From Escherichia coli (lineage in GTDB: Bacteria > Pseudomonadota > Gammaproteobacteria > Enterobacterales > Enterobacteriaceae), in assembly GCF_016026235.1 (NCBI RefSeq), contig NZ_CP065613.1: 64,000 bases of DNA, one strand, 5' to 3'. Below are positions 22,699 through 23,974 of the stretch, one piece after another. The first letter of the stretch is position 1, and each line of letters begins with the position of its first letter. The translations under genes and the position numbers were made by a program. Under the pieces are notes generated by a model. It saw only the letters and a list, made by a program, of their open reading frames with translations, was not told where the DNA came from and ran no database searches.

Positions 22699-22745
22699 GC
22701 TCCAGTCCTTTTCTTCTGGGCCGACTTTCCGGGAGGTGCTTAAAC

Positions 22746-22780
22746 GAAAAACCCCGCCCGGTTTGCGCCGGCGGGGTTTT
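22746..22780 (-). terminator. ilvB attenuator (leader terminator)
   Basis: GC-rich hairpin CCCCGCCGGCGCAAACCGGGCGGGG followed by a U-run on the minus strand, between ivbL and ilvB. Confidence 0.7.
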
Positions 22781-22803
22781 GGAATCGTGTGTTGTTCCAG
22801 TCC

Positions 22804-22902
22804 CTACGGCGCATTGCCGACGACCACCACCACACGCACGACGACCACTGCGGCGGATGGCGCAGTTGGTAGTAGTTTTGCGTTGAACATGGAAGTAGTC
22901 AT
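22804..22902 (-). CDS. ivbL: ilvB operon leader peptide
   Basis: 32 codons MTTSMLNAKLLPTAPSAAVVVVRVVVVVGNAP read directly from the sequence; Val/Leu-rich, typical attenuation leader. Confidence 0.85.
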   Translation of the reverse strand: MTTSMFNAKLLPTAPSAAVVVVRVVVVVGNAP

Positions 22903-23029
22903 TGGGGACCTTGTTGGTTTTGTGTTTAACAATATTTATACAAGCACAGCTTTACAGGGGAGACAATGGAAAATTTTTCAGCAAGGGAAAATTGAGGGGT
23001 TGATCACGTTTTGCACTGAATTGCAGGTA

Positions 23030-23170
23030 ACAAAAAACCCCGCCGGAGCGAGGTTTCGTCAGCCGCCTGCGGCTGGTAACCGCAAAGCACACTGTATTAT
23101 GTCAACACTGAAAGTATACCTGTTCCGCGCAGAACGCGCAATTTCGGCACGAATTTTGACGTATTTAGTA
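23030..23170 (-). ncRNA. istR: IstR antitoxin sRNA region (IstR-1/IstR-2); 5' ends approximate
   Basis: Minus-strand hairpin plus U6 terminator near 23032-23053; contains a ~21-nt block (23087-23110) repeated upstream of tisB; sits divergent from a LexA-boxed promoter. Confidence 0.5.
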
Positions 23171-23212
23171 CATAGTTGAGTATCGATCACAGTTTGCGTT
23201 TTGTCCAAAAAT

Positions 23213-23232
23213 TACTGTTTATTTATACAGTA
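23213..23232 (+). promoter_or_regulatory. LexA box with adjacent -10 (TATAAT at 23239-23244), tisAB promoter
   Basis: TACTGTTTATTTATACAGTA matches the LexA consensus CTGT-N8-ACAG. Confidence 0.7.
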
Positions 23233-23466
23233 AACTTCTATAATATCACTGTACGCAATGTGTTATGCGGGGGCCGCATCGTTACCCGGCGCACTAAGTC
23301 CTGGCTGAAACGGGTGGTGCCGTCAGCGCCTTAACCCCGCGTGAGCACACTGTGTTATGTCAACAAGCACAACGTTTCTCCTTGAGATACCGCGTGCACA
23401 ACAGCTGGCAACAGGCAGCGGAAAGGTACGTCAGCTGGCAGTGCTCCTGAACCACAGGAGACGCGT

Positions 23467-23556
23467 ATGAGCCTGGTGGATATCGCCATTCTTATCCTCA
23501 AACTCATTGTTGCAGCACTGCAACTGCTTGATGCTGTTCTGAAATACCTGAAGTAA
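23467..23556 (+). CDS. tisB: SOS-induced type I toxin TisB (29 aa membrane peptide)
   Basis: MSLVDIAILILKLIVAALQLLDAVLKYLK read from the sequence; too short for the ORF track. Confidence 0.85.
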   Translation: MSLVDIAILILKLIVAALQLLDAVLKYLK

Positions 23557-23575
23557 TTCAGATTCAAGTCGCACC

Positions 23576-23606
23576 AAAGGGGAGCGGGTAACCGCTCCCC
23601 TTTTAT
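23576..23606 (+). terminator. intrinsic terminator downstream of tisB
   Basis: Hairpin GGGGAGCGGGTAACCGCTCCCC followed by TTTT. Confidence 0.7.
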
Positions 23607-23686
23607 ATTTAGCGTGCGGGTTGGAGTTGGGGGCTTCTTCTACCAGCAGAATGTTTGCACCTGCGCTGCCTGTGCCCCTCACCCTA

Positions 23687-23787
23687 GCCCTCTCCCCAAA
23701 GGGGCGAGGGGACCGTCCCGTGCAATGTTTAGCTCATTTTCTGAAAGGGAACGGTGGTTTCCCCCTCGCCCTTTCAGGGAGAGGGTT
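23687..23787. repeat. two copies of a ~26-nt hairpin-forming element in inverted orientation
   Basis: GCCCTCTCCCCAAAGGGGCGAGGGGA (23687-23712) versus the reverse complement of TCCCCCTCGCCCTTTCAGGGAGAGGGTT (23760-23787). Confidence 0.5.
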
Positions 23788-23974
23788 ACAGTTCGCACGT
23801 AATCCCTTCCGGCAACATTTATTGCCGCTTTTGTTTACATATTCTGCCGTTTTGCTTTTCGCCATTCCCGGCACATATCTGGCTAACATTCATCAATGTG
23901 ATAGATTCCTCTCCCGCATTTATGGGAATGCGTAGTGACTTATTCTAATTATTTTTATAAAAGCATCCGTGATA

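Follow-up and report, generated by a model that had tools for sequence, protein, structure and literature searches.

The locus described here, which lies within a 64,000-nucleotide stretch of E. coli DNA (hereafter the window), is almost certainly the extensively studied tisB/istR-1 system of E. coli, a type I toxin-antitoxin pair acting through RNA pairing at a ribosome standby site, and its 22-nt direct repeat is the published IstR-1/tisB pairing site. The identity of the parts, their pairing potential, and their evolutionary conservation come from the present analysis, in which nothing contradictory to this explanation was found; transcription, processing, standby binding, RNase III cleavage, and toxicity would be as established in K-12 by experiments on identical sequence. 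The original prediction, made from the letters of the sequence, had read the region as an IstR/tisB locus with a visible antisense pairing repeat. This observation is correct but ordinary, and every aspect that it raised is already known. The tisB/istR-1 pair is the reference example for ribosome-standby control and for SOS-induced persister formation; its recognition from raw sequence is a good check on the reader that made the prediction and adds no new biology. The features of the locus, in window coordinates, are the following.

23032 to 23171, minus strand: long form of istR, IstR-2 (~140 nt), with ends carried over from the K-12 annotation (L002 619-758)
23032 to 23106, minus strand: short antitoxin sRNA IstR-1, 75 nt if the start is 23106
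23086 to 23107, minus strand: repeat copy 1, AGCACACTGTATTATGTCAACA, the complement of which is the IstR-1 5' tail
23113 to 23141, minus strand: istR-1 promoter, with -35 TTGCGC (23141-23136), a 17-nt spacer, and -10 TATACT (23118-23113)
23179 to 23207, minus strand: istR-2 promoter, TGGACA-17-GATACT, from a promoter scan that predicts an IstR-2 start near 23171
23213 to 23232, no strand assigned: LexA (SOS) box, TACTGTTTATTTATACAGTA, two mismatches from TACTGTATATATATACAGTA
23239 to 23244, plus strand: tisAB promoter -10 box TATAAT, from the sequence and PMC11264685 Table 1
23251 to 23466, plus strand: 5' UTR of the tisAB mRNA, with a putative +1 at ~23251, 7 nt past the -10 box
23344 to 23365, plus strand: repeat copy 2, AGCACACTGTGTTATGTCAACA, target of IstR-1 and putative single-stranded ribosome standby site in the tisB mRNA
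23357 to 23470, plus strand: tisA ORF, 37 codons, with its ATG inside the pairing block at a covarying base pair
23456 to 23461, plus strand: tisB Shine-Dalgarno sequence AGGAGA, from the sequence and PMC11264685 Table 1, predicted to be buried
23467 to 23556, plus strand: tisB CDS, 29 codons plus stop, encoding a 29-aa hydrophobic toxin of the Ser2 allele, MSLVDIAILILKLIVAALQLLDAVLKYLK
23576 to 23606, plus strand: tisB intrinsic terminator, a 12-bp G+C-rich stem with a 4-nt loop and a T-run

The assignment as an IstR/tisB locus is borne out by an Rfam match for the sRNA, by Pfam and NCBIfam matches for the toxin, and by RefSeq annotation. A covariance-model search identified the minus strand of 23032-23161 as istR (RF01400) with 144.8 bits against a gathering score of 45 (E 7.8e-31), the match running over the full length of the model (positions 1-130 of 130). 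At 23467-23556, where a 29-codon tisB had been proposed, an ORF is present that profile models identify as TisB: Pfam PF13939 scored 37.6 against a cutoff of 25 over residues 4-26, and the NCBIfam equivalogs NF011340 (69.9 versus 53) and TIGR04459 (61.5 versus 38) matched residues 1-29 of 29. Over 641 bases (23000-23640) the window is 100% identical to the chromosome of E. coli strain FDAARGOS_943, in which RefSeq annotates tisB at the identical site. A copy of the locus, annotated as tisB, occurs in 4358 of 5426 complete E. coli genomes and is chromosomal in all of them; in the window it is flanked by ilvB and ivbL on one side and by emrD on the other, as in K-12.

The istR and tisB genes are divergent, on the minus and plus strands respectively, and 306 nt apart when counted from the Rfam match. 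The K-12 IstR-1 annotation (73 nt, L002 619-691) maps by alignment to 23032-23104, and we infer a start at 23106 from the position of the TATACT -10 box 7 nt upstream. In the predicted fold, IstR-1 begins with a single-stranded 5' tail, of which nt 1-12 are unpaired, and continues with an internal hairpin and then a terminator hairpin that has a U-run behind it; a sequence scan also placed a terminator-like site for istR at 23049-23037. The promoter hexamers of istR-1 and istR-2 match those in PMC11264685 Table 1, and these hexamers, the tisAB TATAAT, and the ribosome-binding site (RBS) AGGAGA have been tabulated as conserved in over 2,000 strains of E. coli (PMC11264685). IstR-1 is constitutive and is credited with tisB repression in reviews (PMC4147584, PMC5668327); IstR-2 is SOS-induced and not the repressor (PMC11264685). 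By analogy with K-12, IstR-1 would be the active antitoxin with its own constitutive promoter and IstR-2 the LexA-controlled long form, and the target would be a ribosome standby site exposed only after mRNA 5' processing, points that the original prediction had omitted.

The two copies of the 22-nt direct repeat found by repeat search are 95% identical and carry one A/G difference. No further match with up to 3 mismatches was found on either strand of the 64-kb window, and 100 dinucleotide-preserving shuffles gave 0 matches, so the repeat is not expected by chance. The original prediction had placed the second copy correctly at 23345-23365, but its first copy (23087-23110) was 3 nt too long at the 3' end; one extra A on each 5' side lengthens the repeat from that prediction to 22 nt. 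The ATG follows 102 nt after the end of the mRNA copy, in line with the distance of about 100 nt upstream of the tisB start given at first, and the expected G-U wobble is present, A23096 versus G23354 corresponding to IstR U11 opposite an mRNA G. The principle invoked, that a direct repeat between divergent genes yields complementary RNAs, is correct and is the published mechanism: a complementarity of 21 nt between IstR-1 and the tisB 5' UTR has been described (PMC4147584); the two RNAs pair at a ribosome standby site, which is ~100 nt upstream of the RBS, and RNase III then cleaves (PMC6690012). The K-12 pairing has been called "perfect" (PMC6690012).

The duplex is also recovered by RNA interaction prediction. 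Plain duplex prediction on the full intervals suggested for this check was rejected: it gave an end-to-end value of -111 kcal/mol (shuffled controls, -81.8 +/- 6.4), which is meaningless, and because the method ignores intramolecular structure it was replaced by co-folding and by a scan with the IstR-1 tail only. For the 24-nt IstR-1 tail, the best RNA target in the whole window is 23342-23365 (-37.0 kcal/mol), the next-best, unrelated target reaching -23.1 kcal/mol. Co-folding, which takes intramolecular structure into account, pairs IstR-1 nt 1-22 with 23343-23364 (ddG ~-26.6 kcal/mol), alike with the +1 or the +42 5' end of the mRNA, so that the duplex is centred on the repeated block, as had been anticipated. 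The U11-G23354 wobble is predicted to cost ~1.9 kcal/mol relative to a C-G pair. Another direct repeat (23036-23049 / 23333-23346) was set aside as chance or structural; it cannot pair simultaneously with the main helix. Likewise set aside was a third copy of the core, an incomplete one (CAATGTGTTATG) at 23256-23267, inside the 5'-most 41 nt of the putative tisAB mRNA. Among the matches listed, it is confined to Escherichia and the Citrobacter freundii group, and it probably belongs to a 5' stem-loop rather than being another IstR-1 site.

Upstream of tisB, the proposed LexA box with an adjacent TATAAT was found at 23213-23232 and 23239-23244, the box having the consensus form TACTG-(TA)5-CAGTA and ending 7 nt upstream of the TATAAT. 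In the tisAB promoter it spans the -35 region and spacer, and relative to the istR-2 -35 box it is placed 5 nt upstream; there is no second LexA site in the 64-kb window, and shuffles gave 0. Among the matches listed in the cross-genus comparison detailed below, a CTG-N10-CAG box occupies the same alignment position in 19 of 21 loci, and in the Lelliottia and Pluralibacter loci one LexA half-site is missing in each. The tisAB mRNA is known as +1, +42, and +106 species (PMC6690012). With +1 at ~23251, the active +42 end would fall at ~23292 and the RNase III product +106 at ~23356, and given that start the latter would be inside the 23344-23365 duplex. In each of the three mRNA forms, the unpaired probability that folding assigns to the Shine-Dalgarno/AUG region (23455-23469) averages 0.16-0.20.

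Taken together, these parts would operate as follows. LexA bound at 23213-23232 would repress both the tisAB and the istR-2 promoter, and DNA damage would therefore induce the mRNA. The primary +1 transcript would be untranslatable because the tisB RBS is buried in structure; loss of its first 41 nt would generate the active +42 mRNA and expose the standby site at 23344-23365, on which 30S subunits would load via protein S1 before sliding to the RBS, the outcome being production of TisB, a 29-aa membrane-depolarizing toxin. Membrane depolarization by TisB is described in reviews and abstracts, PMC6690012 among them. On the opposite strand, IstR-1 would be made constitutively, from 23106 to 23032, and, its 5' tail being the complement of copy 1, would pair with the standby site over 21-22 bp, one of them G-U. 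The resulting duplex would block standby binding and trigger RNase III cleavage to the inert +106 mRNA. These steps are as published for K-12 (PMC6690012, PMC4147584, PMC5668327), and the published mechanism should apply here because the functional RNA segments are identical in the window and in K-12. By thermodynamic folding, the standby site is unpaired with a mean probability of 0.38 in the +1 mRNA versus 0.47 in the +42 mRNA, a weak opening, and exposure of the site after processing would thus be taken from the literature rather than from folding.

The K-12 MG1655 locus (tisB/istR-1, b4618/b4616), in which IstR-1, IstR-2, and tisB are all annotated by RefSeq, has the same genomic position (ivbL-ilvB / emrD) and the same architecture and is ~98% identical to that of the window. 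The two are identical in both pairing blocks, wobble included, in the LexA box and all promoter hexamers, and throughout the 5' UTR and the Shine-Dalgarno sequence, and their TisB proteins share 28 of 29 residues. Within 23032-23606, six single-base differences separate the window from K-12.

23063: part of the IstR hairpin
23120: position -14 of the istR-1 promoter, also inside the hairpin of IstR-2
23170: close to the 5' end of IstR-2
23210: in the gap that separates the LexA box from the -35 box of istR-2
23471: TisB N2S
23589: in the terminator loop

The only amino acid change among these concerns codon 2 of tisB, which is AGC (Ser) in the window versus AAC (Asn) in K-12 MG1655, and the alignment thus confirms the Ser/Asn difference given, with low confidence, in the original prediction. 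Ser2 is the consensus residue, present in 85% of E. coli loci, and Asn2 is the allele of the K-12 lineage (PMC11264685). In agreement with that report, an exact 61-mer round codon 2 was found in 3288 of the 4358 E. coli genomes with the locus. The N2S consensus variant studied there is the same protein as that of the window (MSLVDIAILILKLIVAALQLLDAVLKYLK), with no differences; it was toxic on overproduction and somewhat, or slightly, more toxic than Asn2 at low induction (PMC11264685).

Beyond E. coli, species-representative genomes were scanned with the DNA pattern GCGGNNACCANCCGCN{10,24}CGCTNCGGCG, which yielded at least 22 Enterobacteriaceae loci; high-GC genomes matched this pattern too readily, and of 120 loci among the matches listed about 100 were irrelevant; Salmonella, E. 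albertii, and E. fergusonii were outside the sample of loci compared. The sRNA scored above the Rfam gathering score in all 16 cross-genus loci tested, and a tisB ORF was present at the expected distance in 20 of the 22 loci, with 65-100% identity to the TisB of the window, the other two loci being too short. An uninterrupted sRNA-mRNA helix of 17-28 bp is found at the same place in 19 of the 20 full-length loci, Pluralibacter having 12 bp, and among the matches listed pairing is kept in 19 further loci from 11 other genera. The sRNA tail and the mRNA site were aligned in register for 20 sequences, 17 of them distinct; two short loci (L019 and L112) and the Pluralibacter locus (L034), which is without the CAGTGTG anchor, were left out of the covariation count. 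In this alignment, 94.4% of cells were paired, compared with 22-50% when the register was slid. Two pairs show compensatory change with 0 breaks: at pair 8-47, 11 distinct sequences have G-C and 6 have A-U, and at pair 13-42, 14 have A-U and 3 have G-C. The sample behind these counts is small and has phylogenetic structure. The cross-genus comparison, with compensatory changes at two pairs across 12 genera, is an independent, sequence-only confirmation of the sRNA-mRNA pairing.

Copies that change together would also be expected if the repeat were a feature of the DNA, either as two sites of one shared DNA-binding factor or as a relic of duplication or gene conversion, with the RNA pairing incidental. 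We regard this explanation as exceedingly improbable. The two copies do not vary symmetrically: four pairs (2-53, 12-43, 21-34, and 23-32) differ only in the direction that keeps a G-U pair and one, 6-49, in a non-pairing direction, being an A-C mismatch in 6 of the 17 distinct sequences, where the helix is 17-18 bp and then 5 bp; the G-U-direction asymmetry favours RNA pairing over a purely DNA-level repeat. Copy 1, moreover, sits exactly at the 5' end of an Rfam-confirmed sRNA. Compensatory mutations in K-12 have reportedly restored repression through RNA complementarity. Control in K-12 is dependent on IstR-1 and on RNase III, and IstR-1 displaces 30S subunits (PMC4147584, PMC6690012).

If RNA pairing at the standby site is accepted, the relevant antitoxin might still be the LexA-controlled IstR-2 (23171 to 23032) rather than IstR-1, toxin and antitoxin then being co-induced. 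IstR-2 contains the same pairing block, its promoter, TGGACA-17-GATACT, adjoins the LexA box, and co-folding with the mRNA is favourable for it (ddG -26.0) to about the same degree as for IstR-1. In the predicted IstR-2 fold, however, the block is internal and partly paired, leaving no free 5' tail, and reviews assign repression to the constitutive IstR-1 (PMC4147584, PMC5668327), so a role of this kind for IstR-2 appears very improbable. IstR-1, pairing as RNA with the standby site, thus remains the antitoxin in the preferred reading.

Within that reading, a few positions could in principle adjust the system in this lineage. At 23120 the window carries C and K-12 carries G, so that on the minus strand position -14 of the istR-1 promoter, adjoining TATACT on its upstream side, reads G and supplies half of an extended -10 TG motif; the same C breaks one IstR-2-specific hairpin pair (marked "v" in the Rfam alignment). 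An exact 62-mer with 23120 C occurs in 56 of 4355 E. coli genomes, and the K-12 allele in 3502 of 4357. Lying in both a promoter and a hairpin, the substitution could shift the antitoxin-to-toxin ratio in this lineage. A 33-nt insertion (~23367-23399) directly after the mRNA pairing block is shared by the window and Escherichia strain E69 and, among the matches listed, is absent from 19 loci of 11 other genera, where the distance from the pairing block to the tisB ATG is 74-79 nt, compared with 109-110 nt in E. coli. The wobble pair 23096/23354 is C-G in 16 of 17 distinct sequences and U-G in the one that is common to the window and E69, and E. coli has 11 nt extra near the IstR-2 5' end. The insertion and the C-to-U change that turns the C-G pair into a G-U wobble may tune standby distance or RNase III cleavage. 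That 23120 C, the Escherichia 33-nt insertion, and the wobble amount to a small lineage-specific tuning seems to us unlikely. The -14 SNP, the 33-nt insertion, the Escherichia-only wobble, and the loss of the tisA start codon in most other genera are absent from the cited papers as explicit statements; all are minor.

With respect to tisA, 13 of 21 loci have ACG in place of the ATG, neither the frame nor the length downstream of it is conserved, and E69 is frameshifted. No evidence of tisA translation has been reported (PMC11264685), and judging from the sequence comparison tisA is probably not a functional coding gene. Its conservation within E. coli suggests RNA-level constraints rather than protein coding.

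Similar arrangements have been described for dinQ/agrB, for zorO/orzO, and for shoB/ohsC, which likewise consist of divergent, non-overlapping genes with an sRNA site in a long 5' UTR and likewise depend on 5' processing to give an active mRNA, dinQ being also LexA-controlled (PMC4147584, PMC5668327). The toxin and sRNA families of these systems differ, however, and the window matches the istR/TisB models specifically; the +44 mRNA of dinQ is without ribosome standby (PMC5668327).

The regions on either side of the locus contain several further elements. Between the tisB terminator and emrD, K-12 has another repeat element than the window. At 23626-23812 the window contains a ~165-nt element with a 27-nt imperfect inverted repeat (23685-23711 / 23762-23788). 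Parts of this element recur within E. coli genomes, with a median of 3 sites per genome and a maximum of 8, and 1497 genomes have the full element at this site; the K-12 spacer is shorter, unrelated, and, judged by eye from the alignment, REP-like. A 25-codon ORF at 23819-23896 on the minus strand, MMNVSQICAGNGEKQNGRICKQKRQ, corresponds to K-12 YsdE, MNVSQIYARNGELFSGRICKQKRQ, with differences at several central residues. On the ilvB side, the ilvBN leader region (22721-22902) includes the ivbL leader peptide ORF at 22804-22902 on the minus strand and, at 22721-22778, a strong G+C-rich hairpin with a T-run, taken as the ilvBN attenuator terminator. This hairpin is also the source of a weak Rfam "Pseudomonas P6" match, which was rejected as covering the terminator hairpin only (20.6 bits against a gathering score of 50).
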